Part shown: piece after piece, positions 1 to 44,620 of the stretch | How positions within the stretch are numbered: position 1 is the stretch's first letter | Layout of the letters: every line of letters starts with the position of its first letter | NCBI GenBank assembly: GCA_050084515.1 | Contig: CM114271.1 | Location: 8,308,001 to 8,372,000, forward strand | From: Blasia pusilla | Taxonomy: Eukaryota | Length of the DNA stretch: 64,000 bases | Direction of reading: 5' to 3' | Notes under the pieces: model-generated | Seen by the model: the letters and a program-made list of their open reading frames with translations, nothing else | Databases searched by the model: none | What the model was told of the DNA's origin: nothing | Made by a program: the position numbers and the translations under genes

Positions 1-260
1 TTGACCATTTGATAGAGGTAGGAGATTCCATACTTTACGGTCTCCAATCACTGGTTGGACTGTCGCACCTATTATGTCCTCGGTACCGTCCACCCTAACA
101 TCCTTGGATACAAAGATGGTTCCAATTTGTAGAAGAAATCGAAGAGAGAGAAAATTTTCATCCACTGCTAGAAAGACTCAAGAGCTTGCGGTCGAACGAT
201 TTTTGATTGAGGAAGGGCCGCCAGATGACTGCCACAAGTGAGCTTCACATAATTATCCAT
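1..260 (-). pseudogene. 5' end of MULE transposase (copy 1), runs off the window
   Basis: The minus strand translates VSKDVRVDGTEDIIGATVQPVIGDRKVWNLLPLSNGQ versus VSKDVRVDDMEDVVGETIQPVIADCKVWNLLPLKNGQ in copy 2. ATG at 260 (MDNYVKL) matches ATG at 41613 (MENYVKL). A frameshift/stop lies between. Confidence 0.7.
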
Positions 261-509: not shown

Positions 510-1196
510 GTTGGAACCCGTCGGAGTCCTGGTTACTCAACTATTAACCCAAGCTAAGCGAAGCCTACAACCCGTCGGCTTCGGACGGGTTGCATGCTTG
601 TGCCTACCTTGAAACGCAAACATGATCAAAGCTGGAAACCCGTCGCTCTCCAAGGAGTTGCTCGGATACCGCGCCTTCTTGCCCGAAGATGGCGGAGGCT
701 TGCAACCCGTCAGCATCAGACGGGTTGCCCAATTATCTCATGGTGTAACACTTACATGAAGGAAGCGTGCAAAGCTTCTATTCTCGACGAGTTCTGCGGG
801 TGCCGCACCTTCTTGCCCAAAGACGGCGAGGCGTGCAACCCGTCGCCCTCCGACGGGTTGCGCAAGGGCCTCCCCTTGTTTCGCTTACATGAAGGAAGCG
901 TGCAACATGTCGGCCTCCAACGAGTTGCGCGGAAAGCCCAGGTTGTTAACCCTTGACGAGGGAAGCGTGCAACCCAACGGTCTCTGACGGGTTGCGCGGT
1001 TACGTCCCGTTCTTGTCCGAAGACGGCGAAGGCGCGCAACCTGTAGATCTCCGACGGGTTGCGCGGGTACCTCCCGTTCTTGTCCGAAGAGGGCGGAGGT
1101 GCTCAACCTGTCGGTCTTCGACGGGTTGCTCGTGCACCTCGCGTTATCGTCCCAGGACGGCGGAGGCGCTCAACCTGTCGGACTCCGACGGGTTGC
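510..1196. repeat. Tandem array (~66-67 bp period, ~11 units), each carrying the palindrome GCAACCCGTCG-N5-CGACGGGTTGC
   Basis: Units at ~567, 636, 702, 835, 902, 969, 1036, 1101 and 1170. The inter-palindrome segments are related to each other (ttcttgtccgaagacggcg...). Confidence 0.9.
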
Positions 1197-1293: not shown

Positions 1294-2274
1294 GGGGAGA
1301 AATCCTTATTTCCGGTTTCTCATTTTGCGATCTCCATTGCTCTCCCGCGCAGAGCTGATCAGATACCAAGGGGCGCTTCACACGGCGAGTCATTGCGAGA
1401 CGATACGAGCAAACGAGAGCAAGACGATTCGACCAAACGATCGCGAGACGATTTGAGCTACCCGTCAAGGCGACTCATCTCGACATCAGCAAGGCGAGTG
1501 ATGAAGCGATTCATCGTGGACATAGGTGGAGGAATTTCTGGGAAAAATGACGAGGAAAAAAGCTCAAGCAAACAAGTCTGGGAGCTTCACTCCCAAGTCT
1601 ATTAGGACTCCTGCGTCACCATCTCCAGGGCCTCGTTCGGAAAATGAGATAAGGCAGCAAGAAATCGAGGAGCGGGAAAGGGAAGCGGAGATGCACAACC
1701 AGGAGCTTCTTGCGAAACGTGTACAAGAGGCGCTCGATAAACAAAACGCATAGGCTGAGATGTCGCAGGCCTTGAAGAAAAGGTTCGCCGACGAAAAGCG
1801 AGAAAAGAAGCGTCTGGACGCGTTGGTGAGAAGAGCAGAATTGGCAAAAGTGAGGAGGGAAAAAGCAATAGCCATTGACGACAGCCCTGCCCGTCCAACT
1901 GAAAGTGTTGAGATGCGGGAAATGTCCCCGATGAAGTTCGGGGACACAATCAATATAGCGGAAATGGCCGAAGTTCAAATCATGGACGATGAGGTCATGA
2001 GGACCGCCGGCGTGGAGATGGTGGACATTGCCGAAGAAGCAGGAGAGCGGTCATCCTCGTCTCCAAGCCCAGCGGAAGAAATTGACCTCTATCGGATCGA
2101 CGAGTTTCCAGTGGACTTTCCAACTGCTGTCTTAGAGCAGTTGGCTGGTCAATAAACCGACCCAATCTTCGAGCAGGTAAGAGAGGATCTGGGTTTTTTA
2201 AATTATGTGAAGGCCCATCTTGCAATTCATTGGCAATTAAGTGTAGCTTACTGATCTTGTCCCGGTTGTGACAG

Positions 2275-2747
2275 GTGGTAAAGCATATGGCACTGATGGA
2301 GGGCCACAACGCCCCGAGAATTCCACTCTCCCGATTGCGGACAATGGAGTACGTCCGCGAAATTCAGTTTGACGAGGATATTGCGAAGCTCAAACCATTG
2401 GCAGCGACAGCATCCTACGTCGACAGCTTCCCTCCATTCTATGTTCAGCCTTACGATGAGCATGGAACCCAAGCGCTGGTTACGGAGGAAGACTTGGAAA
2501 AGCTTGACACATTCTGGAGGATGAGAGATCAGGAATTCAGAAGGCAAGTAGAGGGGACGGAATTCAGCTGGATGAGGAATCTGCATTTCTTCATCTGGGA
2601 TGGAAATCACAGGTTCATGGCGTGGACAAAGTTTGCAGAGGAGCGCCCAAACTCCTTGGAGGCACATTTTTGCGTGAAGGAAGTGGTCCTTCATCCATAC
2701 CCTCATCACATGGCGACGGTGGAGATGGCCATGCATGCCATGAACAC
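2275..2747 (+). CDS. Exon 2: ParB/Srx-like N-terminal domain (DGNHR motif)
   Basis: RIPLSRLRTMEYVREI...FFIWDGNHRFMAW matches the ParB/Srx GxxRxxA signature. Flanked by acag| and |gtaag splice sites. Confidence 0.7.
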
Positions 2748-2759
2748 GTAAGTTTCTTC

Positions 2760-3560
2760 TTGCTGCAAACCGTCGGACTCCGACAAGTGGTTTGAGTCGC
2801 CACTGTTTTTGGGTTGTTTTTGGCCAAACGCAACTTGTCGGACTCTGTCGAGTTGCTCGATTGATGAATGGGTTAGGATGTTTTTGGCCGAAAGCAGCTC
2901 GTCGGAGTCCGACGAGTTGTTCGACTGACCACAAGTTTAGTATGTTTTTGGCCCAAAGCAACTCGTCGGAGTCCGACGAGTTGCTCGACAGGCCGCATTC
3001 TTTGGATGTATTTTGAAGAAAGCAACTCGTTGGAGTCCGACGAGTTGCTTGACTCGCCGTATTTTTTGGATGTATTTCGAAGAAAGCAACTTGTCGGAGT
3101 CCGACGAGTTGCTCGGCTCGCCGCATTTTTTGGATGTTTTGTGAAGAAAGCAACTCGTCGGACTCCAACTGACCATAGGTTTAGTATGTTTTTGGCCCAA
3201 AGCAACTCGTCGGAGTCCGACGGGTTGCTTGACTCGAAGCTATTTTTGGAGTTTTTTTGATGTTTTTGGCTGAAAGCAACTCGTCGGAGTCTGACAAGTT
3301 GCATTCGGAAGTTGGAAGCTACATTTTTCGCGTCAAATTGCAGCTTTCATTGCAATTGCACAACCTGTCGGACTCCGACGGGTTGCTATGTTCACTTTTG
3401 ATACGGACTATCTGACAACTCGTCGGAGTCCGACGGGTTGAAACCATGCAATCACAAATCTGAATGCAATCCGTCGGACTCTGACAGGTTGCATAATTTA
3501 GCTCGTTGCTAGAATCCGACCTTGAGCTATGACGAAGTGTCGGAGTCCGACGGGTTGCAG
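2760..3560. repeat. Intron 2 palindrome array (~13 units, ~64 bp period)
   Basis: Repeated aaaGCAACTCGTCGGAGTCCGACGAGTTGC at e.g. 2958, 3022, 3086 and 3202. Confidence 0.9.
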
Positions 3561-3849
3561 GAACCCATGTACCTTACAAAATTTCTTATATTGAGTTTGG
3601 ATGTGCAGGATTGTATCGGAGGGGAATGTCACCCACCACTGGATCCAAGATTGCGATCGGGTGAAGAAAGTGCTTACAACGCACCCGACAGAGTACAAGG
3701 GGTTCTTGGGCGACGCCTTGGTAAATCAGATGCTGGAAAAGGATGCACAAATAAAAAAGAAGACTTGGGCAAATAAGTTTATTTCCCAAGATGCAACCGT
3801 CACAATCCTTTGCTTGTCGAAGATATAGGCCGCGAAGAAGAGCGCTGCA

Positions 3850-5067
3850 TTGGAGGTGGAGCGGAGGGAGAAAGTATTTGTGTCTGAGCGTGCAAAATTC
3901 ATCGAAGCTACACTATCTGCAGCCACGAAGTACACGGCAAGCAAGATGCAGCGCTACATCGCCATTCTCAACCCCGAACTTGGTCCGGAGTTTTACAAGG
4001 AGTTGAAGGCGATTATCAAGCGCCAGCGAAAAAGGGATGAAGATCCGCAAGGTCGGATTGGGGAGAAAGTGTCTCTCAATCGCGTGCATCGATTTGCATT
4101 GTCAGGAATAAGCGAGTTTAGGAGAATCCGACTGATGAAAATCAGTCTCGAGGGCACAGAGGCCCAGAAGAGAGCGGCACACCATCCTCCGGGTGTGTCT
4201 GATCCAGTGATCTCCCATTGGCTCCGCGAATGGTCGTTTTGGGACGCGTTGCGGCTTATCGAGAAGTCCATGCTGGACGGTCTCCAAGCGGAGCTCAAAA
4301 GAATAGAGCCCATTTTGGATGAAGCATACCTGGAAAGTGCTGTAGATTTCGAACTTTGGCTTGATGACATCTGGGACAAGCCCATCAAAAACCCAAGTTT
4401 CAAGACGATGTTCAAGGATTGCGTCCTCCCTCAGGCAGACCTTGACGAAGAAATCGAGGGGAACAAAAGGGATCTCGCAAAGAAGAAGCGAGATCTTCAG
4501 GAGAATGCGGCCCATTTAGTTCGACTAAGAGCTGCCCAACGGATGGTCTTCAGGTACCTCGTCTATTGTAAGAATGCACGTACCTGGGGAAAAATACCGG
4601 CAGCCTACAAATTTTGGGCTTCTTCGCCTGATGGAGAGACATTCTCCATGTACGACACGGAGATGGCTCAGCACATGTCCGATTGGGAGGTGGAGAATTT
4701 CCCGATTTGGTTGGACTTCAACGACCATGAGGACATTACCGAGAAATATTTACGCGTGCTTCATGATGCAGTGGCCGCAGGACGGGACCACATCCCCAAT
4801 TTTGTGCAGCCTGGAGACTTTTTTGAAGGAGATGCGGAAGAGCAAGCCCTCGAGACAGCGGAGTTGGCTTCCAAGGTCCACACAGCCAAAGACAAATCCA
4901 AAATGGGTCTCAAAGGCAAGGCGAGGGGAGCGAAGAATTTTGAGGACGAGTCTTCCCAAAGAGAGGCTGAAGATTCAAGGCCAGAGCCGGAATCGTCCGG
5001 GCGAGCGGGGAGAGAGGGTCGGACCAGGTCCTCCACGAAAAAACCCCACCAGAGTCTGAGGTCATAG
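3850..5067 (+). CDS. Central part of exon 3 of the ParB-like/MTase-like gene (405 aa open stretch, helical/charged, function unknown)
   Basis: In frame with 3610-3828 across a single TAG. It is the longest ORF in the window and has protein-like composition. Confidence 0.6.
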   Translation: MEVERREKVFVSERAKFIEATLSAATKYTASKMQRYIAILNPELGPEFYKELKAIIKRQRKRDEDPQGRIGEKVSLNRVHRFALSGISEFRRIRLMKISLEGTEAQKRAAHHPPGVSDPVISHWLREWSFWDALRLIEKSMLDGLQAELKRIEPILDEAYLESAVDFELWLDDIWDKPIKNPSFKTMFKDCVLPQADLDEEIEGNKRDLAKKKRDLQENAAHLVRLRAAQRMVFRYLVYCKNARTWGKIPAAYKFWASSPDGETFSMYDTEMAQHMSDWEVENFPIWLDFNDHEDITEKYLRVLHDAVAAGRDHIPNFVQPGDFFEGDAEEQALETAELASKVHTAKDKSKMGLKGKARGAKNFEDESSQREAEDSRPEPESSGRAGREGRTRSSTKKPHQSLRS

Positions 5068-5689
5068 AGACCTTGACAAGCCGACCGCAGACTCGGGAGA
5101 AGCGGAAGCGAGAGGCGCCAGGGTTGTCCTAAGGAGAATACAGTCCATAATCCTTGGGAAGACATAGAAAAACAACGACCCGGACAAGCGTCCTCCTTCA
5201 GTTCACGAATTTACTGGATGAGCTGAAAAGTTTCAGTTCTCAAGCGTCGACACCCGCCATTGATAAATTGACAACGTTGGGACGGAAGCTTCAACGAAAC
5301 GGGCACGCTCCCTGGACGGTCAATGGAGTGGTCAAAGAGGTGGCGGTGGATCTATTGATCGCTGATTTGCCCTCGGGGTTGCGATTGGGGACGAAAATCC
5401 GTCGGACGGGGTACCAGACTAGAATGTTCCCCTTTCTTATGACCAGATCACGCTCCTATTTTTTCTTTGCATACGCTTATCTGAGTGACAGGGGCTACTT
5501 CTTAGTTTTGACTGGAGGGAGCAAGGACGAGCTTTTCAACCTCCAGTGCATCAAGAGGTCGCTAAAGTGGAGGACGGTGCAAGCGTGGATCATCAAGAAC
5601 GAGTACCCACTATGATCTGCGACGAGTCAGATCTGGGTAAGGCTCTATTCCTGTCTCTAGATTGTATATCTCCGACGTTGTTTTTGTCT

Positions 5690-6003
5690 GTGAGCAACCC
5701 GTCGGAAGGCGACAGGTTGTTGGCTTAGAGCAGCCCATGCTTGGTTGAGAGCAACCCGTTGTTTTCCGACGGGTTGCATCTTTCCCAGAAACATAGGGAA
5801 AACGCATTACCACATGCAACCCGTTGGAACCCGACGGGTTGCAGTTGCTTATGGTTTTTCCCTGTGTTTCCGAAAAGCTGCAACCCGTCGGAAAGCAACG
5901 GGTTGCTCTCAACCAAGCATGGGATGCTCTAAGCCAGCAACATGTCGCCTTCCGACGGGTTGGTCATGGACAAAAACAACCCGTCGGACTCCGACAAGTT
6001 GCT
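5690..6003. repeat. Intron 3 palindrome array (~6 units)
   Basis: Units at ~5694, 5750, 5816, 5880, 5937 and 5977, with variable 5-nt centres. Confidence 0.85.
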
Positions 6004-6112
6004 CCAATGTTAGTATTTAAAAGAAGTTCTCTAGGGTCAAGCAAAGTTTTTTGGTGACCTGTTGCACATTATGCCAAGTTTCTGACATTGTTTCCAATGT
6101 GCTTCTTTACAG

Positions 6113-6625
6113 ATGGACCACTCCTATGTTTACTGCTTCGTTTGGCCCGAGCACAACTTCCAGGTGTTCAAGATCCAAGATCCTGTGGATCCATGCTCAG
6201 ATGGGTACAGCTTAGATAGTTTATACAATTCTCCCCCGAGAATTTACATGCAAGACGGTACCCCACTACTTGGAGGAAGGGAAAAATCGCCATCCCTGAT
6301 GCAAACGCTCATCGAGCTCTGCTCAAGGCCGGGTGACTTGGTGTTCGACTTAGTGGGCCTTTCAGGGGCGAGTATCAAAGGCGCCAGGCAGAGTGGCAGG
6401 AACATTCTCTACCTCGAGGGAAGGCAGGAACTATTTGACCTTTGCAAGGAGGCAAAGGGAGATTACGACATGCTCGTTGGGGCGTACAACTCTCCACCGA
6501 AGTCGAGAGCTCCGATTCCCAACCCACCATTGGTAGTGACACCATCGTCACTTCCAACGATTCCGAAAATCGGGAGGGCAAGGCCGGAAGTAATTTTGCA
6601 AGAGCTCTCGGACGATGACCAGTGA
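6113..6625 (+). CDS. Exon 4: SAM-binding half of beta-class DNA amino-methyltransferase-like domain
   Basis: EKSPSLMQTLIELCSRPGDLVFDLVGLSGASIKGARQSGRNILYLE parallels the N6_N4_Mtase pattern QKPxxLxxxLIxxxSxxGDxVLDPFxGSGTTxxAAxxxGRxxxxxE. Confidence 0.7.
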   Translation: MDHSYVYCFVWPEHNFQVFKIQDPVDPCSDGYSLDSLYNSPPRIYMQDGTPLLGGREKSPSLMQTLIELCSRPGDLVFDLVGLSGASIKGARQSGRNILYLEGRQELFDLCKEAKGDYDMLVGAYNSPPKSRAPIPNPPLVVTPSSLPTIPKIGRARPEVILQELSDDDQ

Positions 6626-6699: not shown

Positions 6700-7810
6700 T
6701 TCATAGAATAGATCAAATGTACAATTCCGAGCTTCTTTTGCATGTAATAAAGGAGAAGATTTTCTCGAACGATGGTGGTGTTTCTAAAAGTTTTCTGAAT
6801 ATCTTTTAAGTCTTTTCGAATGTGATCGTCTATGTACTCCGCGGACTTCTATTTTGCAACCCGTCGGATTTGCACGGCTTGCAACTTTTCACTTTTTGAC
6901 CATTGCACCTTTTTAACCACTTCCAAGCAACCTGTCGGATTCCGACAGGTTGCCTGATCGGACTCTTTCCTTGTTGGTCCAACTTAAGAGGCAGTCTGGC
7001 GGGCTTCTTCACTTTGGCACCTTCCCCTAGTATCGTAAAAGAAGGCGTAGGCTTCTTTTCTTCTCTCAGATGTGTTGGATTCCTACTACCTGTGGGATTG
7101 CCATCATGGTATTACCAAGGACGGAGCACATATTGATACTGGATGGGTGTCACATTGCAGAGCGTACAAGATATACTGCCGAGGAAGGCGATGGGACTCA
7201 AATCAGGTTACATGGGACCGTTATGGTGTACCTAGGGGGGGGCCAAGGCTCTCGAATTTTCCAACATTTTCGATCCCCGTCTACAATCGGCCAGAGGAGC
7301 TACTTGTATCCCCGGACATTCCTTTTGTATAACAACCTAGGAGAGTTAGGAGTAAATTTGTAGATGACGAGGCTGAAGAAATCATAGACTAGGTCAAATG
7401 TACATTTCCGAGGTTCCTTCGGAGGTAATAAAGGACGAGATTTTTTCAACCGATAATGGTGTTGGAAAAAGTTTGCTGGAAATTGTTTTTGGACTTGTGG
7501 ATTGTGTTCTTTTAGGTACTCAATCCACAAGTCCAATTAGCTAATTTTGCAACCCGTATGATTCCGACGGGTTGCAACTTTAAGCTTTTTGCCCACTGCA
7601 ACTTTTTAACCATTTCCAGGCAAGTTGTCGGATTCCGACAAGTTGGCTGCTTGAGTGATCGGACTCTTTCCCTGTGAAACCAACTTCTAACGCATTGTGG
7701 CGGGCTTCTTAACTTTTGGCTCGATCCCCTACATTCGTCAAACCAATTGTAGGCTTCTTTTCTTGTCTAAGATGTGCAGGATTCCTACTACCTGTCGGAT
7801 TGCCATTTCG
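6700..7810. repeat. Diverged direct duplication (~6700-7105 vs ~7380-7810), each with two palindromes; further palindromes to ~8016
   Basis: The blocks gatcaaatgtaca.., tgatcggactctttcc, ggcgggcttctt and gattcctactacctgt are shared in the same order. Confidence 0.8.
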
Positions 7811-8590
7811 GATTCCCAACCCGCTGGATTTTCGTGGGTGCGGGGTGGAAGGGAATCACAGTGAGAAATCTTTCCTTTCTTATGGTGAGCTTGCTTGCAA
7901 GGGGTGCAAGCCATCTGATTCCAATGGGTTGCAAGAGTTGCAACCTGTAAAATTTCGATGGGTTGCAAGAGTTGGAGGCCCCCAAGAGTTGCAACCTGTA
8001 AAATTCCGACGGGTTGGGAGGATCTTAATGAAGTGACATCACTTCCTCTTTACTCCAGAAAACTAACAATCTTTTGGTTCAATTATCGTCTCATGTGTTC
8101 ACATTTCACAAAGTTGGTCTTGAGCAGACACCACTCATAACCAACAGAAAGTTGGTTATGAGGCAATTCAGGGAAGGCCATGATGCAGGCAACAATCCCT
8201 GCAAAAAGAGAGGTTGGCATCGTATTGATGCGCATCCGGGTGGTCTTCCAACAAAAATATCCATGGGCACTGCTTATTGTAGACCAAGACAGGCAATGTT
8301 AAGAATTTTAGGCTCACATGGAGAGTGATGGAAAATTGTTTGGAGTGGTCTTATGATGTCTATTTTTTTTTCGCGCCCTGGAAAAAGGAGGTTTCTTTAG
8401 GGCCAAATGTGGACCACTACCTACTCTCTTCTAAAGATTTCATGAATTTGAAAGCAAACAAAAATTTCAAATATGTCACAAAGTTTTGAAGAGAAGAGGC
8501 AGATTTGGCCCTTTTTTTTGAAGAGAGACTCTCCTCTCTTCCTCTCTTCCTCTCCTCTCTTACTCTCTCCAGTCAAAATACCAGCCCCCG

Positions 8591-10151
8591 CAATTGTATG
8601 TGGTAGTGCATGGCTATGAGTCGTTCATCATAGGCTTAGGATGTAAGTCAAGAGGACAGACAAGGAGTATTTGAGGTGAGAGCTCGTATGTGGATAAGCA
8701 CCTAGAACAGGACCTTGTGTTGGATTACACTCGGCCTCGCCCTAGCGTCGGCGAGACAGATGAAGTCTATCTTGGGGCTTGGGGTGATCTTACTTGTGGC
8801 TTCAGAAGTAAACTTAGTGACGCGCCTAAGTCGAATACGAGAGTGACCCAATAGAAGTACAAATTGTAGATCAGGTAAACAAGTGTGATGTTTAGAGGAA
8901 TGAGCCAGAAGAGTCTAAGGTTGCACACTTAGTTAGCTTATTTGATAGGTTAGTTCTTTGGAATGAGTCCAAGCTTATCAAAGAGGAGAGGGTAATAATT
9001 CTAAGTGGTGCAAAGCGACAACTGTAGACTTAGAGGAATTGCAGGTTAGCCACCAGAACGCAATTCAATGTCAAGGGGTAGGCTGCCCAAGAGACTTGAC
9101 ATAACACATGTTTGCGTTGATGAGGGCATCAACCTTTAAAGAGGGGTGAGTGTCGTGATCCTCATGACCAAATGAGTGCCAAAGCGGAACATCGGAACAT
9201 TAGCGGGCTCACGCTAAGATGGTTTGCGCGTTGGAGTAGTCTCGAAGAAGAGACAAGAGACAAGACGCAAGCGAGCCTTCGCGTTTCAGATGTTGTGGTC
9301 GCGACCGAGAAACCTGGACCAAACGCGGAATAAGACTTGAAAGGAGTCGAGTCTAGAAAGTGGGTTGCCAAAGGAAGAATCCGGATTTGGAACGCCACTA
9401 GCGTTTGAGAGTTTCCGACTGTATCTATAACCATAACTTTTAGCGCCGAGATGAGTTTGGATTAGACAAGGGTGCATTGGAAGGCTTATGGAAAGCTGAT
9501 TCAAACGCACTAAAGATCTCTACAAACGGATAAGCAGCGGCTGAGGAAAAAAACCAAGAAACGATTGTAATTAGAGTCGGGTTGAGGGCCACAATGAAGG
9601 GCCCGACCCTCCTTTTCCAAAGGGGGGTTATTGGAGAACCCAGAAGTACTAGTAAGGGGGAAGGTCTCCAAGAGTGCTTGGAACTCGAATCCCACTTTGG
9701 GTGCCACACGGCGGCTCAAGGGCGTGGAACGGATCGAGAGTTTGGGGTTGGGTTGGAAAACCTGAACCAAGTCTACGGAGGTGATTTTAGACATCCCTCT
9801 TGGATTTCACACCGCGACTCAATTTCTTGGGTCTCGGTTTGGAGCTCGCACCAGGTCCGTTGAACAGTTGGGATCGCTAGGCGCGCAAGTGCCATTTTAG
9901 GTTCCTGGACTAATCAGGAAGTCTGTTCCAAGTCTTGAAGGACTTGCCATGTTTTGGAAACTAGGAATTAAGGAAGGTTGAGCTTGATGAGACGCCGAGT
10001 TGAGAACTCGGTGGGTTGGAACGCTGGTTGGCCCGGACCCGACTAACAAGAGTGCGTGTTTGGGTGCAGATCGGCGATGAGATCGTGTCCTACTGAACAT
10101 ACGCTTTCGCAACACTAAAGATTGACGTTCAATGAGAGTAGGGGCACGACA
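8591..10151 (+). mobile_element. Long LTR (chromovirus family, 5'-truncated/solo)
   Basis: High similarity to 33031-34593. Ends ...gtaggggcacgaCA. The homologous LTR end at 40192 is followed by a PBS and gag. Confidence 0.8.
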
Positions 10152-16993: not shown

Positions 16994-19900
16994 TGTGGAA
17001 AACTACTAAAGAAGCATAACTGTTGGGAAACGGCTCTCACACTCACACACCACCATGGAGAACAAAATTTGCAATGAGAGAATGAGTGGAGGCTGGTCCC
17101 TTCTCAATTATATAGGGTATGTACGAGCCACCCTAACCCTAACCTTAACCATAGTCTCGAGTTAGACTAATTGTGATTAACTAACCCTAGTTAAGATAAT
17201 CGCGCTTAACTGACTAACCAAGATTTAGCTTCCCTACTTTGTGTAAGTACAAAATGTAGTAGTTCAGGTGTCTCACGAGCTTGACTGAACTCAATCTTCA
17301 ATACTCTCGAGACCTCAAGCTCATATCGATATCTCTAACGCCTAAATCATTTCTAAACATCTCAAACTTATCTCTAGACAATGCATGTGTAAAGATGTCA
17401 GCAATTTGCTGATCTGTACCTATATACACAAGATGAATTTCTCCTGCAAGTACTTTCTCTCTGATAAAATGATAATGCACGTCAATATGGTTTGTACGAG
17501 CATGAAACACAGGGTTATTAGCAATCTTGATGCTACTAATATTTTTTGCATATATTACGCTAGGTCCTAAGTTACTAACACCAATCTCAACAAGTAATCG
17601 ATAAAGCCACACCGCCTCATATGCTGCATTGGTTGCTCCATTGTACTCAGCCTCTGTTGAAGATAAAGCAACTGTAGGTTGCTTCTTGGAAGCCTAACTT
17701 ATAGTTGCGCTTCCTAAATTAAATAAATAACCAGATGTGAAGTGTCGATCAGACACGCTTCCTATCCAATCAGCATCCATGAATCCCTGTTATTGAAAAC
17801 TCAAAGAAGATTCAAATTGAAGCCCAAATGGAATAGAGAATTTCACATACTCCATAATCCTCCTCACAGCATCAAGGTGAGGTTTTCGAGGTGCTTGCAT
17901 AAACTGGCTCACTAGAACATAGCTCAAATCTGGCCTGGTTATAGTTAGATAGATTAAACTTCCAACCATGCACGTGTACATATTAGAATCTGCAAGCAAC
18001 TCTCCTTCATCCACTCTTAGCTTCACACTCTCGTCTAACTCTGTAGAGATTGGCTTAGAAGCCGTCATACCATATTTTGAAAGCATATGAAGAACATGTT
18101 GTCGTTGTAGTAACCACATGCTCTCTCCAACCTTGATAAACTCAATACCAAAGAAGTACTTGAGTTCTCCCAAGTCCTTCATATTGAAATGTACAAGAGT
18201 TTCTATTTTACAGTCGTTTAATAAGTTTGATCCCCAAGAGGATCATTGTTTGATGAAAAAAGAGTTCAAAATTATAATTCTTTTGTAATAGTTGTATTTA
18301 AATGTGTATGATTTATATTCAATATCTTATCAATATTTTTGGATCTTTCTTAGTACCAAAGTTTATTTTCTCAATTCTCTCTAGTGGAGTTGACAGCACG
18401 CTCTGGTAGATTTCCTCTCGATCTCAAGAAACCTCACAGAGACCTCAACATGAAAGCTGGCTTTTCCTACTTTCGGAACTCAATCCGTCTCGGCAGGCTA
18501 CTCTCTGTCAAACAAATTTCCTACAACTCTATGTTGATTATTCCATTGATGAGAAAGGTTCGCCTGATTCACTCCTCACTCTGCAGATCCAATAAGAATA
18601 CTCAGACATAAACATCGCGATTCAGAACGAAGAAATTATCGCTTTACTACTCCATCAAGAATGAGAAAGCTTCAAAGTGTATACAAGCTTGAGAGGGTAC
18701 TACTCCCTTGCTCGGACCATTCCTACAGCATAAGGATTTCGTAAGAGAATGATGATGATAGCTACTTTTATTGCTTCTTAAATACTCTCTAAAGGAGGAG
18801 TGATCCAAAGATTCGAAACGTTCTTGAAGAAGCTGGTGGCTCTTCAACTTTTGTAACTACCTAGATCTATGGTGCTCTTTGCTTTTCCTATGATCCCTAT
18901 GAATCCGCAGACCAAAACTGTCATAACTACCAATTTGATCCAAAGGGTTGCGTCTCTTCCTATTCTAACTGTTCTAACTATGTGTCGCTTGAAATTAGTG
19001 TCAGTCTTAGCTTCGCTTTGCTGCTAAGTCTGGACCTCTTTTGCTTCGCTTGAGCACGAAGCTCTTTCTCCTGATCTGAAGACGAAGCGCTCCATTATTG
19101 GTTCTTGTTCCATGTGCTTCGTTCTTCGTGCTTCGTTCACGAGCAAAGTACTTCTTTCTCTTCTTCTTCATGCTTCGTTATGCTTTGTTATAGAGCGAAG
19201 CACTTCATAGACAGAGCTTCGTTGAGCTTCGTTGTCATCTTGAAGCTTCTTGCTGGGTTTTGAGACTTCGTTACTTTAGTCTCCTCTCCTCTTAGGAAAA
19301 TCCTTGATTTTCTATCTCTCTGCCTTGTCCTTGGAGCTTCGTGATTCACTTTAATCTTACTCATTCCTTCCCATAATAATATATAATAATCAAAATCATA
19401 ATGTATGTACAAGTCTTCGTTGAATAAAAAGATATATTTCTTCAAAAGTACAAAATTGTGGGTATCACATATCCCCTCCCCTCCCTCAAATGTGAGCCGC
19501 CCCGGCGAACACTTTAGGATGTTTCTTCTAACTCCATAAAATTATCCTCTAAACTATCAAACTCAGGTGTAGGCGTAAAACGACCGTGAATAGTAGAAGG
19601 TTTGTTGATAATGTTGGGGGTGTGATTGCGCATTCTTTCTCGCGATTTATTAACAACTAGTTTACTTCCTAATACTCTCCTCCTCCATCACAACGCAATC
19701 TGAGAATGTGTCCTCGAGTCTGCTTCTCTACTATAACTCTGAATATTTGGAACAATGAGAATACCTCTGACTTGGCTTTCAGAAAGTATACCCATATATA
19801 CCTAGAGAATTCATGAATAAATGAAATAAAGTATTGGCAACCACTAAGGCTATGTTGTGATGTTGTCCACACATCATTGTGGATCAACTCCAATATCCTG

Positions 19901-22296
19901 GATGCTCTTCTACCTTGCTTTGGAAAAGGAAATCTAGCTTATTTTCCAAATTGGCAAGCTGGACATACCTCCAACGTAGCAGGACTCGCTAATTTAGGGA
20001 GTTTTATTACTATATTAGATGATGAAAGACTCTATAATCTTTGAAGATTTATATGTCCAATTCTATTATGCCACATATTTAGATCTGTGACTTGTTGGCC
20101 TCTTTGACCATACATTGCTGTTTCAATCTTTGGCATAGAAACATCTAATTTGAATATTCTGCCAAATGTAGTTCCTTTGGCTATCGTAGTGTGGTTATCC
20201 ATTGTTTCAATGAAACAACCATCTGCGTTAAACTTCACTTGATAGCCCTGTTCTACTATTTGTCCTATAGAGATCAGGTTTCTTGCAATGGTAGGAATAT
20301 AGAGAACATTTCCAAGTGCACAAAGATTGTCTAAGGCTATTGGAACTTTACCGGTATGCATGATATGATGTTGAGTGTCATCTCCTGTGAGCACAATTGT
20401 AGGATCTTTCACCGGCTCCAAACTACTGAACCATTTAGCTTGTGAGGTCATGTGATTTGATGCAATAGAGTTAATATACCAATCTGTTGTCAAGTCTTTC
20501 TTGACCATTGCTCCCATATAATGAGTCATAACCAAGAGATGTTTTGTTTGTGAATGTTGTTGTTTTTGGTACTACTCTTGGTGTTGTTGCTCCACATAGT
20601 TTTGTTGCTATAAGGCTCCTGTTCTCATATCTGCCTTTTTTCTGAAGCAAAATTTTGCATAGTGACTCTTTATCCCACAGTAATTGCAAGATCCAAGGAC
20701 CCTCTGCTGCTGACCTCGACCCTAACGGTTTCCACCATCACCACCTTGTGATTGTGTCTGATACTGGTTCGTAGTTGATTGAGTGACGTTATATTGAGTG
20801 CCTCTTCCTCCATATGCTTGATATCCACCACGACCACGGAAGCTTTTGCCATGACCCCTGCCTCTCTTTGATCCATAACCTACAAATAACGCATTCTCTT
20901 GCAGACTAGACGAGCGACCGTTGCCTACTAGGCACATCTCTTCACTGATTAAAAATGGGACTAACTCTTGAAAGGTTGGATAATTCTCTCTCATAGAGAT
21001 AGAGGTCTCAAAGGACTTGTAATTCTTAGGAAGGCCTTGAAGAGTGAATAAAATCATATCATCAACTTCTACTGTCACTCAATCGAATGCTATTCAACTG
21101 ATCAACAATATATCTGATACTCAAAATATAATTATCGATGCTCTGTGATCCTTTCCTCGCTTTATTCAATTACTATTTCAATTGAAGCTTTCACGCCTTT
21201 ATAGATATCAAGAATAGATTTTCCAATGCATCCTAGGTCTCCTTCGGAGTATCAACATCTTAAATGTGACCTATCATTGGTGAACTAATCATTATTGAAA
21301 TGTAGTGGATTACTTGCCTTGCGCGTTTGTTCCAGGCGCAAACATTCAAGTCTGTTGAGTCACCTTCTGGCTTGGCCTCATTACCTGTGACAAGCTCCCA
21401 TAGTTCTTGACCCATAATAAATTTTTTTATGCCAAACTTCCAGACAATGTAATTCTGCCTATTTAGCTTCTCGCTTGTGATTGCTGTTGAGGAATACTCC
21501 ATGACGAACGATTTCACTCAAAAAAACGTTATTTCATGCTCTCTACTGCTCCAATAGAAGCATAGACCATTCCTACATAGAAATTGACCTGAAATTTGCT
21601 AAAATTGATCAACTTTATGAAAGAACTAGTAAAAAATGGCTTGTAGAGAGCAAACTGCACAACTTTTTTTCACTAATTGCACTTTCTTACACTAGAATTA
21701 CTACTGCAAGAGCTCAGAATCTCATAATCAAGAAATTTTGGATGCATTGGAAAGCTCTTGACAAGCTCTATGCAAAGGCTAGAAAATATGGCTAAATCAA
21801 CTAGGAAATCCTTCAAAAAAGTCTCCAAAGTTTTATCACCGTCAAAGCTCCACCTGAAATCTACACCCACTGAGCTCTGAACAAAATTTCCTTCTCCCAA
21901 ACTGAAATTGTGCCTTCTCTTGCCTCTCTTCTCTCCTCAAACACCAAGAATTTCAAGTGATGTTCTCTTATCGCTCTAATACCATGTGGAAAATTGCGAA
22001 AGAAGCATAACTGGTGGGAAACGACTCTCATACTCACACACCACCATGGAGAAAAAAATTTGCAATGAGAGAATGAGTGGATGTTGGTCCCCTTCTCAAT
22101 TATATAGGGTATGTTCAAACAACCCTAAACTTAACCTTAACCATAGTCTCGAGTTATACTAATTATGATTAACTAACAATAGTTAAGATAATCGCGCTTA
22201 ACTGACTAACCAAGATTAAGCTTCCCTACTTCTTGTGAGTATCAAATGTAGCAATTCAAATGTCTCATAAGCTTGAATGTAACTCAATCTTCAATA
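16994..22296 (-). mobile_element. Ty1/copia retrotransposon copy 1 (degenerate, interrupted, with integrase-RT deletion)
   Basis: LTRs 21985-22296 and 16994-17303. PBS tggtattagagc. Gag 21260-21517 and 20722-21078, protease DWYINSIASNHM (20032-20535), integrase ELIHNDVW..LRCDGGGEY (19669-19893), RT 17790-18182 and RNase H 17298-17612. Confidence 0.9.
18185..19469 (-). mobile_element. LTR (~1.28 kb) with adjacent polypurine tract, nested in copia copy 1
   Basis: Closely similar to 44951-46204. TG...CA ends. The purine tract gagggaggggaggggata lies on the minus strand at 19470-19487. Confidence 0.8.
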
Positions 22297-26392: not shown

Positions 26393-29300
26393 TCAAAGTA
26401 GTTTGTTTAAAATACTTCGCACTTCTTTGAGGGACATAATTGGTTGGTGGAATCCTACTCCTACCTCCGACTCTCTGAAAACTACAAGCAACACGTAGTA
26501 CATGTGCTTACAAGGGAAATACCTTTTCCCACTTGTCTCTCTTTGGACAAAGTCTTCATAGGAACATGTGGGAAAGCAACAGATGTGCACCACATACACC
26601 CCTGTGACACTTGAATTTACAATGTTGTTCTTGATCCAAAACATCCTTCCTATTCCATTACCACTCTCGACATCTTTTGTGGCGATGATTTCCATGTTTG
26701 CCTCCGGAACTGATGCGATTCGCTTTGCTCTCTCCACCGTTGGCCTACACATTCTATTTCTCTTCACCCCATTTCTAGACTCAAACAGAAATAGTGGATT
26801 GAGATCATCCACCTTCTCTCGGTACATGTTGACATCAATCTTGGGTTGAATACGAAATGCGAAGGTCTTTGTAATGCAAACATGATCCGAACTTCCTCCG
26901 TGAACGAGTATGAAACCGACACTTGTAAGATTGTCCACTTCATCCTAAGTGCAATTCATACTTGCGGCAATGGGCCAAATCGTGGGGGTATTTCCTGTAG
27001 CTCCAATGGCAGCCGGATAAGACTTACGGAAAGCGCAATATTTATTTGGGCAGAAGAAGTACTCCAATTGATCCCCGGTCCTTGTGAAATGATCAAAGGT
27101 CTTGAGTCCCCAAAATCTAGGCAGTGGTTGTCCAGTCCTTGTACAGTTCTTATTTAGGAAAGTGCCGCATGCTCTCCTAATGCCATCATATCATGCCCTG
27201 CAAGTGGCTCCACATACAGGTTTGCTCCGAGATATATGCCACCTTTTGAGGTTGCAATCCACCTCAATGACCGGAATCCCATGCTATTGAACTACCCTAG
27301 AGACCGGATGTTGCGAACTTCCAACAACGGAGGGCTTATGAAATAAAACATTCACTGATTTTGGAGAAGTTACTGCATCTCATATTTGGGAGCAATCCGG
27401 GGTCTCCCAATACCTGGGCGGCATAATTTCTTTATCCAAATCAATCACCCGGTTCGTTCCTCAATGTTGAAGTCAAGATATTTATCTGGTCTCCACGAAT
27501 CTCGCTTGGACTGCTCTACCACCATCTATATGGGACGTCTTGAAACACGCCCATGAATATCCCCACCAATGTGGACATCTTGCTCGAGGGGAGTTCTTGC
27601 TACGCACCGATTGAAGGCTTCCACATAGAGTTTCTAATCAACAAATCTTACAGCCGCCTTGACATAGACCTCGTAAATTGAAGGCCCCTTTCCTTTTGTT
27701 ATGCCTTTTGTGAGGAAGATATGGGATGCTGCAGACTGTAGCGTTGCTCTTGCATGGTCTTGTTGGTATGCCTCAACGAGTGGAATTCTTTGGCATGCTG
27801 GTGACGACCTCTAGGAGGAATGAACACTTTCTGCTCCACTTGTCTTGGGGCAGAGGCCATTTTCATGAATGTTCTATCCCTGCAACGACGACAATGTGAG
27901 AAGGGAACAAAAATAGCTCTATGAGCAAAGAAAAAAGCAACCTGTCGAAACCAGACGGATCGCAAGTCGAAGGCATCCCATGAATGACTCTGTGACCCAT
28001 CGGTTTTCGACTTGTTGCAACACCCAGGAACCACCTAGTGCAACCCGTCGGATTCAGATGGGTTGCAAGTAACTTTGGTCACTCCGCGTTGGAAGATCCA
28101 AGTGCAAGTCATCAGAATCCGACGGGTTGCACATGGATTTTCCAGCCTCGGACTTGAAACGGGTTGCAAGTCGGAGACATCCCTGGAATGTCCCAGTAAC
28201 CTTTTACTTCAACCTAGCACCCAAGAACCTGCTACTGCAACCCGTTGGAATCGGACGGATTGTGAGAAGCAGGCCGGTCCGGTCTCGAAAATCCTTGTGC
28301 AACGTGTCGGATTCCGTTGGCTTGCAAGAAGTGTCCACACACAAAGCTTTCAAACTATTGGAATTTGACGGGTTCCAATTAACTTGCGTTGATGCAACAT
28401 ATCTGGATGCGAGGACTTGTAGACATCAACAACCTGTTTGAATGCGAGGAGTCGCATACAGACGCAACTAGTCAGAATCTGACATGTTGCAGACGCACGC
28501 AACTTGTCGGAATCCGACGGGTTGTAGACCGAGTTAACTTGTAGCCTTGCGGCTTGCGACCCATCTGGGTCAAACTATTTGCAGGCCTTGTATACATGCA
28601 ACTTGCAACCCGTCGGGATTCGACAGGTTGCACACTCATGCAACCAGTCAGGTTTTGACGGGTTGCACAAACATTCCTCGTGCATGATGTCGCACTCTGA
28701 CGGGTGTGACACTTAAGCAACCAATTGAGTTCCAATGGGTAACACAAACATTCTTGATGCAATGTGTCGATTTCCGACGGGTTGCACACCTAGACAACCC
28801 GTCGCATCCGACGGGTTGCTTGGTTTCTGCGGTTTGAAATCCCTATAGTGCCCACGCTTCTCAACTTAAGCTGCAACTTTTCAAAAACATCTCAGCATGA
28901 GCTCAACAGGACGAAATACTGAACTCACCTACTGCATGAAGTTTCCCCATTGTCTCATTTGTACAGTCCACCAATTGAGCCAAGAGCACAACTCTTTGTA
29001 CTTCCCCTCAATCGCATGCTTCCTCCACCACCCATGAAGTTCTTCTTGGCACTCCATGGTCAGTTTCAAGGTTTTGCTGTCCTTGCAACGTTCAAGTAGA
29101 GTGACATGCTATGTCCTCTTATTCTTCTTGATGCAAGATTTGGTGTATCGGGTCACAGATTGTTGCCAATGGAAAGCATGCGACCTTTCCCTCTCTGGTT
29201 GACCCTCTCCACCCGAGAACACTCCCCTGATAGCAATCCACCCAGGTTGTGCATTGTCTGCCATAAATCCATAAATTTCCGGAGATGGCCTTTTGTTTTT

Positions 29301-30790
29301 GTTCGCCACCTCCAATAAGAGTAACCAACACATCTTCAAACTGCCAACGTCTTTTTCTTTTACCTCACAGATAAATATAGTTTCTAGTCCCTTCTCCACA
29401 TGGTCCTAAACGTGAGCACCCATAGTCAACCATCCATTCAACACTCTGTAGAAAATATCAAAGCTTACCCAATTGCCATAGAGATCTTCCCCTTCCCTCA
29501 TTCAATCTATAAGATCGAGGCCACTCGACGGCCCTGTAGCTGGTATTTTGAAGACATAAGCCTTGGATCCTTCACCTCCTTGGCCCATGAACTTCCATCT
29601 TTGAATAAATGGAAATCTGGAGTTGGCCTTGATTCTGGAAATGGCATCCATTTCGGCCGTCTTTCCATCAATTACCGTATTTTACGCAACAAATTCCGGA
29701 AGCATTCAGAATTGGCGAGAAATGCGGGATTTTCCGAGAGTTCTTTCTCCTTAACAGTTGTGATCTCGCCTTGCCCAGAGATTCCAAGCAATTGTTCAAA
29801 AATTTGTGATGTTGTTGTTAACTTGATCACTCCGAGCTTTGATCCCACAGAGTTTCTATATACCTCGGCCACTTTCTTTGCCACGTCCTCGTTGATGTGT
29901 CTCTGAATTGCACCGATAACACGATGAGTGTGGGAGCCAACATGAATTTCCAGCCTGGTGTACTCGAACGTAGAGTTGAAGTCGTGCACAATGAAAAATA
30001 TATATGGAGGACACGCTCCAACGCAGAAAGGGGATGCCTGACAATGAGGACATCGATGGCCTCCTAGCGGTATGGTCGCACCGACCTCATATGGATTTTC
30101 TGCATTCTTTGGGAGGAATTGCGACATATTGACTTGCCCATTGCGCTCTAGATACGAGCAGCTTGGACTTCTACACTCCATGGCTCCAACGCATTGGCGG
30201 CTAGAAACAATCCAAGGACCATATGGAATTGAAGCACTAGTCCGTTGAAGCCTGCACCATCGATGACAATCAGACTTTCTGTCCATACCCTTCAATCGTC
30301 CTCCATCTTTCTTTTGAGCAAGACCAATAAGTGGAGGTAACTCAAGAATGCAATTACCATCATACGTGGACGATATCTTGTCCAAAAGAATATGCTTGAA
30401 TATTTTAAAGGGCAGAGACGCCAACAAAATATTTCCTGATACTCACAAGAGGAACGAATAGGCAGACACAGGGCCTGGTTGGTGTCCGTCAGATCCACTA
30501 AGGTTGACAACATCTGGAATGTCTTCAAGAAAGACAATATTTTTATGAACACGTGAAGTTGGAGTCGATGCCGGATCTACTGAGCTGGGAGTGGCAAACA
30601 TAGAGCTCGATGCACTAGGAAATTCGAGATTGTCTACTTGGGAAACAGAGGAATTCAGAGGTAAGCCATAAACTCTATATTGACCATTTTTTAGGGGTAG
30701 GAGATTCCATACTTTACAGTCTGCTATCACTGGCTGGATTGTCTCACCTACAACGTCCTCCATATCGTCCACCCTAACATCCTTGGAAAC
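26393..30790 (-). pseudogene. MULE transposase: GCM/WRKY-like Zn domain + DDE core + C-terminal SWIM finger; intron ~27880-28928
   Basis: RQCVGAMEC...C..C...HVGSHTH (29672-30427). WVSFDIFYRVLNGWLTMGAHV (first D, ~29410-29475). FMADNAQPGWIAIRGVF...HAFHWQQS (second D and C/HxxH, 29109-29399). TSGAESVH (E, ~27820-27845). CCFPTCS..FPCKHMYYV SWIM finger (26393-26938). Multiple stops and frameshifts. Confidence 0.85.
27935..28820. repeat. Palindrome array inside the transposase intron (~12 units)
   Basis: gcaacccgtcggattcagatgggttgc (28040), gcaacttgtcggaatccgacgggttgt (28499), gcaacccgtcgggattcgacaggttgc (28606) and others. Confidence 0.85.
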
Positions 30791-31810
30791 CTCTCGAACA
30801 TACTTGGTGATGTTCCTGCCATCAAATCTCCCCAACTTCTTCACAATCGCTTGGAGATCCCTTGTTGATCTTTGCTCTCCGATGTGAACTCCTCCTTGTT
30901 GGCTCAACAATGTTGTCAAAGTTCGGAGAAGATCCTCAGCTCCCTCAGTTCCCATTGATGAAGTATTCCCAAAAGTAGTCATCTTGATACGACTCCAACT
31001 TGCAAACACAAACTACCGCCTCAAAGAGCTCTCAGTGGAAGCACCATTTGTCGTGTCGAGAATCTTTCTTCGAGCAAGGGCGGGCCTTCTAGCTGAGGTA
31101 GATGCGGTCGATGCAAGGTGAACTCTCTAATAAGTTCTCCTTTTTTAATACAAAATTATGATGTACACTCTCCATTCTCTCACGACAGGTATCACAATTG
31201 GAAGTGCCGAGGCGATCACTTCTTCGTAACATCGGACCCCGAAATTCCTAACTATAAAATCCCTATAAACTATTTTACGTTTGTACACGAGGAAGATAGC
31301 ACAACTAGTGTTAAACCCTACTTGACCAGGCCTATTGACATCCATGGATCGCTATATAAGGACATACAAAGTACAATCCCATGTCCTTCCATATGTGACG
31401 ATAGGAAGAATCACCGGAGTTGGAGATTGCATGACCTGGTTCATGAACGCCTCCCCAAAGTGATAAACTAAATAGCGAATGAACCAGTGCCTATCTACAA
31501 AGAGTACCTTGACATGGTAAGGATTGAGGAAAGGAAAATCGGGCACAGCTCATGCTCCACCCCTATCCATGCTTGATAGACATTCTCTACTCTCCTCAAG
31601 AATGGGTTTTGGCGGAGTTATTCTCCCAAGAGGGGAATCCACTCTCATTGGGAAAGTAACAAGCCAAAACATCCGCTATTTTAGTATGACTAAACTCCTC
31701 TACGGTGACAAACCTCTCATCTCCACACACACACACACCACACTCTAGAAACCTCTCGAAGAATAGACCATGATCAAGTTACTCTCCCAAGAGGGGTGAT
31801 CCACTCTCAT
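30791..31810 (-). mobile_element. Gypsy 5' LTR + PBS + gag N-terminus (inverted relative to the rest of gag)
   Basis: LTR end ...cacgaCA at 31049 (minus) followed by aatggtgcttccactgagagc (PBS-like). Gag KKLGRFDGRNITKYVRE. Confidence 0.65.
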
Positions 31811-32661: not shown

Positions 32662-32899
32662 TGGACGTTTCGAGCGGAGACAGGTGGTGAGACCGCACCC
32701 GAACATCGTAAATGAAGAGCCAGAGTTTGAGGTGGAGACCATCTTACTTTCGAGGCGTCGGGCCAACAAGTATGAATACTTGGTAAAATGGAAGGGCTAC
32801 CATGTGAAGGAGGCGACTTGGATTGCAGAGGCGGATTTGGAACACGCGCAAGAGTTGTTGCGTGACTTCAAGCGAACACAAACGAAGCACATACGTTAG
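32585..32899 (+). pseudogene. Chromovirus integrase C-terminus with chromodomain
   Basis: IHPTFHVSLLKKY (GPY/F region) followed by FEVETILLSRRRANKYEYLVKWKGYHVKEATW. Confidence 0.9.
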
Positions 32900-44370: not shown

Positions 44371-44620
44371 ATGCCTCGGAAAAAGGCCCAAGCCAGAAAG
44401 GGTGGGAGCTTCACTGCTAACTCCTCTAGCACTTCTAAGTCGGCTTCTCCTGCTCGTCGTTCGGCCGCGGACATACGGCAAGAAGAGATTGCGGAGCGGG
44501 AGAGAGAAGAAAACATGGGCAAGCAGGAGTTGGAGGAGAAACTCACTCTTGAGAACCTTGGAAAGCAAGATATCAAACAGGTCATAGAGGCAAACAAGGC
44601 GAGAGAAAGAAAATTGCACA
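44371..44620 (+). pseudogene. Truncated exon 1 of the second ParB-like/MTase-like gene copy
   Basis: MPRKKAQARKGGSFTANSSSTSKSASPARRSAADIRQEEIAEREREE aligns with the 1547 translation. Confidence 0.75.

Follow-up and report, generated by a model that had tools for sequence, protein, structure and literature searches.

Introduction

Transposon accessory proteins that carry a ParB-like domain together with a DNA methylase domain have so far been noted only in brown, red and green algae, where their functions are predicted (PMC12477816; bioRxiv 10.1101/2025.02.11.637652). In this work we describe a gene of this type in a 64,000-nucleotide stretch of the genome of the liverwort Blasia pusilla (GenBank assembly GCA_050084515.1, contig CM114271.1, positions 8,308,001 to 8,372,000 of the forward strand), referred to below as the window; all coordinates are positions within it. 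The analysis centres on one exon at 2275..2747 (+), which a first-pass annotation, made from the letters of the window alone, had read as a ParB/Srx-superfamily domain in a spliced plant transposon gene, probably acquired horizontally.

The closest described systems are the following. In the brown alga Ectocarpus, the accessory protein of Sola1-1_Ec32 has 1104 amino acids (aa) and carries ParB-like and N4/N6 DNA-methyltransferase domains; its gene is transcribed opposite the transposase of the 21.5-kb Sola1 element, and the protein has been proposed to bind and modify its own element (PMC12477816). The same source, citing Iyer et al. 2011, also credits green algal transposons with such proteins. 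The genome paper on the red alga Bostrychia describes two separate proteins, PAG2, which combines PF01555 with a SET domain, and PAG3, which combines a ParB-like domain (HHpred E 0.29) with a 2OG oxygenase; tandem inverted-repeat arrays adjoin PAG3 in red algae, and the accessory genes pass between elements of the Plavaka, Mutator, Zisupton and Fanzor types (bioRxiv 10.1101/2025.02.11.637652). In prophages, ParB-CTPase folds are often fused to N6_N4 methylases, according to a PNAS survey (PMC12704722); members of this fold variously bind CTP, ATP or GTP, and the sequence does not predict the nucleotide. ParB-fold nucleoside triphosphate (NTP) switches are only now being mapped beyond bacterial chromosome segregation (PMC12704722). 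Land plants are described as having few N6-adenine methylases (Iyer et al., PMC4738411). A literature search for ParB in connection with transposons in land plants or bryophytes found no land-plant report among the papers covered.

On the data presented below, we consider it probable that the product of the exon is a domain of the ParB-CTPase fold (ParB/Srx superfamily) in the N-terminal part of a protein of about 1,100–1,200 aa, and that this protein belongs to a repeated, dispersed, transposon-like family of liverworts and at least one fern.

Results

The ParB-like Exon and Its Fold

The frame of the exon, 2272–2751 (+), is open over 159 codons and contains APRIPLSRLRTMEYVREI and, further on, FFIWDGNHRFMAWTKF. 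The exon itself is intact, with 157 codons and 2 nt. It begins after the acceptor TGTGACAG/GTGGTA (AG at 2273–2274, border AG/GTG) and ends before the donor ATGAACAC/GTAAGT (GT at 2748–2749, border ACG/GTAAGT), and these GT..AG ends, together with the open frame of 157 codons, confirm the borders assigned in the first-pass annotation. The order of motifs that it reported is also present: an N-terminal conserved strand motif at 2317..2358 (+), consisting of RIPLSRL (2317–2337) and VR (2353–2358), and then IWDGNHRFMAW at 2593–2625 (+), within which the DGNHR codons occupy 2599..2613 (+).

The AlphaFold2 model of the domain, built from an alignment of 66 sequences of the exon family (alignment A1), has a mean predicted local distance difference test (pLDDT) score of 91.1 and a predicted template-modelling (pTM) score of 0.86. 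In it, the strand 105–109 (FFIWD) leads into the helix 111–122 (NHRFMAWTKFAE), so that DGNHR lies at the turn from strand into helix. Because of this position and its conservation, DGNHR is a candidate equivalent of the Box II or P-motif (GERRxRA) of ParB.

A VIA search of the model against 48,161 representative chains of the Protein Data Bank (PDB) returned 13 chains with Z ≥ 2, all of which we take to be ParB/Srx-type or related DndB/GmrSD-type folds: KorB (8.4), PadC (7.4), Arabidopsis sulfiredoxin (6.6), pNOB8 ParB-N (6.3), the free serine kinase SerK (5.6), human Srx (5.5), Atu1540 (5.5), SbnI (4.9), Spo0J (3.1), SspE (2.9), BrxU (2.7), Osa (2.3), and a DndBCDE-DndI entry (2.1). Superposition on Caulobacter ParB-CTPγS (7bm8_A) gave Z 9.5 and a root-mean-square deviation (rmsd) of 1.9 Å over 95 residues at 18% identity. 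In a second round of superposition, on 134 chains from Foldseek's list, the Z scores were 9.3 for Myxococcus ParB, 8.6 for KorB, 8.5 for Noc, 5.4–6.6 for Srx, and 4.8–5.8 for SerK and SbnI; Z ≥ 8 was reached by 11 of the 134 chains, every one of them ParB, Noc or KorB. The PDB rows listed by Foldseek are nearly all ParB, Noc, KorB, Srx, PadC, SbnI or SerK, with probabilities up to 1.00, and among its matches in BFVD are ParB-like proteins of phages as well as two phage DNA methylases.

The structural comparison thus supports the original assignment to the ParB/Srx fold, given the Z score of 9.5 with ParB-CTPγS and the model pLDDT of 91.1, and it refines the likeness to ParB, Srx and DndB that had been proposed. 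In the model, the domain is nearest to the ParB/Noc/KorB clamps (Z 8–9.5), and sulfiredoxin (5.4–6.6) and the DndB type (2.1) are further away.

Sequence profiles give a fainter picture. The only Pfam match of the exon is DUF1015 (E 0.015, 14.6 bits, below the cut-off of 25.8), and among the 66 members of A1 the sub-threshold matches are DUF1015 in five, DndB in two (best E 0.066), and DUF6551 in one, three families that presumably belong to the ParB clan. NCBIfam, including TIGR00180, has no family that matches the exon at E ≤ 1. COMMD9, which appeared in the profile search of PDB sequences with E 0.15, was treated as a chance match.

Conservation and Distribution of the Family

With the 158-aa translation of the exon as query, phmmer recovered 119 proteins at E ≤ 0.001 from 1.84 billion cluster representatives. 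E ≤ 1e-10 was reached by 31 of these and E ≤ 1e-30 by none; the top match has E 7.5e-21 and 36% identity. W81 is invariant in the 66 rows of A1, and P17, F43, Y48, F55, W77, F88, G110, N111, H112, R113, and W117 are conserved in at least 90%. Among the 119 matches, 82 have DGNHR exactly, 10 have EGNHR, 13 have single variants and 14 have no motif, although the last may or may not span this region. The count of exact motifs and the conservation of G110–R113 agree with the importance that was first attached to DGNHR. For the N-terminal strand motif, the family consensus is IPLCRL..VR, and a motif of the type [IV]PL[CY].. occurs in 67 of the 119 matches.

Among 30 representatives that were looked up, 17 come from the liverwort Riccia sorocarpa and one from the fern Adiantum nelumboides, and none of these 18 named proteins is prokaryotic or viral. 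The 17 Riccia paralogues are spread over contigs of 8 different lengths, and the Riccia members are annotated as hypothetical proteins. In UniRef, three of them (P0120, P0122, and P0123) bear the name 'Trimethylguanosine synthase'; the sole Pfam signal in these proteins is a sub-threshold match to PF01555, and the automatic name is probably misleading. As judged from these searches, a family of at least 119 representatives lies outside Pfam coverage.

Within the window, the A1 profile matches one exon only (E 2.3e-56) in a search of six-frame open reading frames of at least 25 aa. Word-indexed homologue searches with the exon ('near' lengths) and with A1 (572–2000 aa) gave no match, owing to their low sensitivity, since phmmer showed that relatives exist. 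Among metagenome loci, a single-protein query (P0020) confirmed no relative.

A tblastn search of the exon against 50,697 phage records gave no match at E ≤ 1. The horizontal acquisition first proposed for the gene is still suggested by its domain architecture, and it can be put no more firmly than that because no prokaryotic or phage relative is detectable by sequence.

Architecture of the Protein and Its Methylase-like Domain

The intact relatives appear to share one layout: the N-terminus is disordered and is followed by the ParB-like domain, then by a long stretch that belongs to no known family, and the protein ends in a domain resembling beta-class (N6/N4) DNA methyltransferases. In Riccia P0122 (1207 aa), the ParB-like domain covers residues ~174–321 and is separated from the methylase-like C-terminus by ~600 residues of no known family; in the C-terminal region, the similarity to PF01555 (N6_N4_Mtase) covers the final ~55 positions of that profile. 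The tblastn matches of Riccia P0122 and P0014 are collinear with the window, at 2314–2745, 3616–4869, 5340–5609, and 6119–6439.

Against the PF01555 cut-off of 26.7 bits, Riccia P0120, P0123, and P0122 score 26.2, 24.8, and 23.7 bits, and the window at 6086–6622 scores 20.4 bits (E 5.6e-4). A Pfam search of the downstream exons and of the full-length Riccia proteins found nothing other than this weak PF01555 signal, and no SET or 2OG domain.

The S-adenosylmethionine (SAM)-binding motif I of the beta class has the form F-x-G-x-G. The corresponding region, which follows motif IV, has the sequence DFAGGWGAT in the Riccia proteins and DLVGLSGAS in the window copy. Over 46 aa, the region shares 46% identity with the methylase of phage Lrm1, a genuine PF01555 member with a score of 83.7 bits. 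When the methylase part was compared with the phage records by tblastn, only 46 aa of three Lactobacillus-type phage methylases matched; the one of these that was inspected is a stand-alone protein without a ParB domain. We use 'methylase-like' as a provisional label, given on the basis of the motif order and the sub-threshold matches.

Splicing and Expression

Raw reads of three RNA sequencing runs with the same species label (X18, X19, and X20) were placed on the window at a likeness of at least 90%. In total, 139, 202, and 169 reads were placed, nearly all of them 90–95% alike. A splice from 2747 to 3609 with GT..AG ends is present in 2, 3, and 2 reads of the respective runs (7 in total), and the first mate lies on the minus strand in all of them, which corresponds to plus-strand RNA in most stranded libraries. 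Related copies are transcribed and spliced at the 3' border of the ParB-like exon, and the gene may be called spliced, as it had been, on the evidence of the GT..AG borders and these 7 reads from copies 90–95% alike. A joint from 5632 to 6112, with three extra letters, was seen in only two reads of one run and is weak, and no splice of intron 1 was seen in the three runs.

Database proteins give an indication of the age of the intron that follows the ParB-like exon. Of 45 that reach the end of the ParB-like exon, 24 stop within two residues and 21 continue. Open-reading-frame callers stop in this way at introns, and the intron after ...MHxxN seems to be old.

A separate set of reads was observed in the region 2295–2368. 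In each run, 33–49 reads cover only ~44 nt (2325–2368), in an orientation opposite to that of the other reads. C>T at 2352 and G>A at 2359 are common to all of them, as is a fixed unrelated sequence behind 2368, and their clipped part before 2325 is similar to upstream sequence of the window itself. The reads seem to stem from a fragment of a diverged paralogous exon that lies antisense within some well-expressed transcript.

State of the Window Copy

The following gene model, on the plus strand, can be proposed for the window copy. Exon 1 (1547..2176) consists of an ATG and a low-complexity N-terminal region, with in-frame stops TAG at 1751–1753 and TAA at 2153–2155; intron 1 (2177..2274) has GT..AG ends and is in phase with the flanking exons. 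The ParB-like exon is followed by intron 2 (2748..3608, GT..AG), which is filled by an array of palindromes described below. Exon 3 (3609..5064) encodes the long middle region, which has no Pfam family and is matched by residues 324–712 of P0122 at 3616–4869 (tblastn, E 1e-22); its in-frame TAG at 3826–3828 falls within the sequence aligned to the Riccia proteins.

The methylase-like domain is divided between two exons. Its N-terminal half lies at 5151..5636, in a frame different from that of exon 3, and holds the motif IV-like ADLPSG (5364–5378) and LSDRGYFLVL (5481–5510), which align with ...LDLPTGLK... and ...LDDRGCLIIL... of Riccia (tblastn of P0014 residues 938–1028, E 0.015). The last intron (5637..6112, GT..AG) contains palindrome copies at 5684–6002. 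The last exon (6113..6625) encodes the C-terminal half, including the motif I equivalent FDLVGLSGAS (6344–6373), is matched by residues 1057–1161 of P0122 (tblastn, E 1.5e-9), and ends with a stop codon.

Because of the three in-frame stops and one frame change, all outside the ParB-like exon, the window copy is a pseudogene in which this exon happens to be intact.

Palindromes, the Partner Gene and the Second Copy

A 26-bp palindrome, GCAACCCGTCGGAnnTCCGACGGGTTGC, has 62 pattern matches in the window versus 0 expected from shuffles. An upstream tandem array with a 67-bp period (557..1196) lies between two diverging genes; the array in intron 2 (2765–3558) has a 64-bp period and comprises the repeat families D1, D2, and D4; and the downstream copies (6856..8016) belong to D5 and D7–D9 and include a duplicated block of ~700 bp (6851–7104 versus 7544–7806). 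Further palindromes are found at the second copy (26188, 28040–28631 and 41886–41954) and at 47529. Long inverted pairs were considered as terminal inverted repeats and rejected, since they are palindrome copies matching one another; the ends of the element are therefore undefined.

In reads of other copies, 59 nt of the 64-bp array are skipped at 3139–3199, with 6 other letters (11 reads in X19 and 6 in X20). The number of repeat copies in the intronic palindrome array thus varies among family members, and the reads indicate that the array is present in transcribed RNA that is unspliced or retains the intron.

The gene that diverges from the ParB-like gene starts at 1..177 (−) and runs off the window. 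It recurs at 30446–31012 (−), and 1–111 is 86% identical to 30680–30790 (blastn). The second copy of this partner gene continues through several exons from 30446–31012 (−) to a C-terminal exon at 26396–26944 (−). Its N-terminal part has Cys/His-rich stretches, and a SWIM-type zinc finger was recognized by eye in the exon 26396–26944, where the Atlas SWIM clusters (0.88–0.89) are taken as a lead only. Pfam gave no match for the partner gene even at E ≤ 5, and Atlas gave no usable match for 29675–30442. Judged by eye from motif patterns, the partner gene may encode a Mutator-like (MULE-like) transposase.

The N-terminus of a second copy of the ParB-like gene lies at 44371–44571 and is 57% identical to the first in protein and 70% in DNA. 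The unit is clearly a repeated two-gene module, and in the second copy the two genes are separated by sequence of a long terminal repeat (LTR) retrotransposon.

Around these modules, a repeat of ~410 bp occurs in three copies (8590–9000, 33031–33439, and 38740–39159; 92% and 76% identity, one inverted), which are probably LTRs, and gag, protease and chromodomain remnants lie near them at 31774–32896 and 40906–41756. It appears that the second copy of the two-gene module is split by these insertions and that the first is bordered by them. Decayed genes of the Ty1/copia type (RVT_2, Pol_BBD, Retrotran_gag_2, and SH3_retrovirus) are found at 17301–21078 (−) and 53070–54457 (+).

A host gene for nuclear cap-binding protein subunit 1 (CBP80) occupies 60577–62580 (−) (MIF4G_like_2, E 1e-27). 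Its part at 62029–62580 (−) is 77% identical to the protein of Marchantia paleacea, 73% to Calypogeia fissa, 70–71% to Riccia, 59–61% to mosses, and 47–51% to angiosperms. The plant origin claimed for the DNA from its letters is supported by this neighbour, which is closest to liverwort proteins (70–77%) and places the window in a liverwort.

Discussion

A Possible Mechanism and the Points Against It

The data can be arranged in a simple scheme. The arginine of DGNHR would bind a nucleoside triphosphate, as in Box II of ParB; the protein would recognize the tandem palindromes of its own element, as ParB recognizes parS; and this recognition would bring the methylase-like domain to the DNA of the element, which would thereby be marked. 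A role of this kind has been proposed for the algal transposon accessory proteins that pair ParB-like and methylase domains. We propose this chain tentatively and regard it, taken as a whole, as possible rather than probable.

Several results weigh against the assignment or the scheme. With regard to the fold, the Foldseek E-values are weak, the best being 0.013 for PDB and 0.0039 for BFVD and none reaching 0.001; Pfam ParBc (PF02195) has no match to the exon at E ≤ 1; and neither phmmer nor a profile search of PDB sequences gave a ParB. With regard to function, the protein has no recognized DNA-binding domain, whether helix-turn-helix (HTH) or other, and the palindromes could instead be subterminal repeats bound by a transposase or an unrelated satellite. 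Of the RNA reads placed in the three runs, none of 139, 202, and 169 is at least 99% alike to the window copy, and they therefore come from related copies.

The methylase-like domain is subject to similar reservations. The PF01555 matches are below threshold and cover only profile positions ~165–220 of 221, and the AlphaFold2 model of this region (P0123, 8-row alignment) reaches a pLDDT of only 34.6. The canonical motif IV of the beta class is (D/N/S)PP(Y/F/W); at this position the Riccia proteins have DLPTG or DMPSG, the window copy has DLPSG and the Adiantum protein has DVPFG, or D[LMV]P[STF]G overall. With such a non-canonical motif, the domain may be inactive or may act on another substrate.

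The word 'transposon', used for this gene from the outset, is supported in part: the family occurs in many dispersed copies, one of which has decayed, but searches of the window revealed neither a transposase domain known to Pfam nor terminal inverted repeats or target-site duplications.

Other Explanations

The alternative that survives best is that of a structural relic, in which the ParB-like fold is kept without binding nucleotide or DNA, the methylase-like domain is dead and the protein is a scaffold or has no function. Motif IV of the liverwort proteins lacks the canonical PP and aromatic residue, the methylase domains of DIRS1 retrotransposons are reported to be inactive on similar grounds (PMC4738411), and the window copy is itself a pseudogene. 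However, DGNHR, W81, W117, and P17 are at or near invariance across proteins that are 25–36% identical, which argues for selection on the site; methylase motif I is well kept, and related copies are transcribed and spliced. We consider the relic unlikely.

The ParB-like domain might also serve the mobility of the element as a nuclease or DNA-nicking module, in the sense of the Pfam term 'ParB-like nuclease domain', and not as an NTP switch. Such a role would fit the presence of several phage 'ParB-like nuclease domain' proteins among the BFVD neighbours, and Iyer et al. count ParB as one of the nuclease domains that occur as fusions in restriction-modification contexts (PMC4738411). The best structural matches are nevertheless ParB, Noc and KorB in their nucleotide-bound clamp forms (Z 8–9.5), and neither terminal repeats nor cleavage sites are known for the element, which makes this role very doubtful.

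Equally improbable, in our estimate, is a host gene family, domesticated or expanded in the lineage and non-mobile, whose introns were invaded by an unrelated satellite or miniature inverted-repeat transposable element in the form of the palindrome arrays. No transposase domain is recognized beside the ParB-like gene, the ends of the element are undefined, and the Riccia annotation treats the members as ordinary hypothetical proteins. Against a host family stand the many paralogues on Riccia contigs of 8 different lengths and an identity of only 33–36% between two liverworts in which CBP80 is 70% identical. Moreover, the window holds a decayed copy and a second fragment, and one and the same gene lies beside each of them on the opposite strand; palindromes are found again at the second copy, and the gene type is present in curated algal transposons (PMC12477816).

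An ATP-using phosphotransferase of the Srx/SerK/SbnI type, whose target would be a protein or small molecule instead of DNA, is the least credible of these explanations: Srx, SerK and SbnI are among the structural matches (Z 4.8–6.6) and the PNAS survey found ATP binding by ParB-fold domains that are fused to SAM-dependent methyltransferases (PMC12704722), but these three score below the ParB, Noc and KorB chains, Asn111 stands where Srx has its catalytic Cys and the fusion partner resembles a DNA methylase.

Returning to the main reading, a ParB-CTPase-fold protein of a transposon-like family, the scheme can be extended to a transposon-borne counterpart of ParB/parS in land plants. An NTP-gated clamp would load on the GCAACCCGTCGGAnnTCCGACGGGTTGC palindromes in the promoter region and in the gene's own introns, spread, and carry the non-canonical N6/N4 methylase domain with it, and a self-applied N6-methyladenine (6mA), N4-methylcytosine (4mC) or other mark would shield the element from host silencing. 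We regard the extended version as quite unlikely to hold in full. If palindrome binding and DNA methylation were both true, the family would represent a plant transposon that marks itself, and it might account for DNA methylation other than 5-methylcytosine in land plants.

Comparison with Known Systems

The N-terminal fold resembles that of the bacterial ParB, Noc and KorB clamps (Z 8.0–9.5, rmsd 1.9–2.7 Å over 91–97 residues). Like them, the liverwort protein has G-x-x-R at a strand-to-helix turn and palindromic repeats near its gene, in the manner of parS. It differs in having ~85 residues with extra helices between the two motifs and in being encoded by a spliced eukaryotic gene. In comparison with the canonical ParB of ParABS systems, there is no match to TIGR00180 or ParBc, no recognized HTH or C-terminal dimerization domain and no ParA partner.

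The catalytic cysteine of sulfiredoxin sits in a GCHR motif. The liverwort domain shares with sulfiredoxin the core fold (Z 5.4–6.6) and the ..HR motif, but it has Asn111, conserved in at least 90% of sequences, at the place of this cysteine; it scores higher with ParB and belongs to a large multidomain protein.

With the phage fusions of ParB-CTPase folds and N6_N4 methyltransferases (PMC12704722), the family has in common the two domain types, their order in one polypeptide and an association with mobile DNA. In the liverwort proteins, however, the domains are ~600 residues apart, motif IV is non-canonical and the exon has no detectable sequence similarity to any of the 50,697 phage records.

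The red-algal Plavaka accessory genes PAG2 and PAG3 offer a closer parallel in their ParB-like and PF01555-type domains and in the inverted-repeat arrays beside the ParB-like gene, of which there are four here. In red algae, these domains are distributed over two proteins with SET and 2OG partners, whereas in liverworts they are joined in one protein without SET or 2OG; the red-algal ParB call has an HHpred E of 0.29, compared with a Z of 9.5 for the liverwort fold (bioRxiv 10.1101/2025.02.11.637652).

Ectocarpus Sola1-1_Ec32, as described in PMC12477816, likewise has one long protein with ParB-like and methylase domains, in a repeated element with a second gene on the opposite strand. It belongs to a brown alga and is accompanied by a known transposase, whereas the present gene is from a liverwort and its partner gene has a SWIM-like lead only; the two are likened by description and not by sequence.

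Taken together, the gene type, a ParB-like and methylase accessory of transposons, is already known from algae (PMC12477816; bioRxiv 10.1101/2025.02.11.637652). What the present locus adds to it is a liverwort and fern family, a confident assignment of the fold and a one-protein architecture with a variant motif IV. The type exists in liverworts, where it is transcribed and spliced, and it has a relative in a fern.

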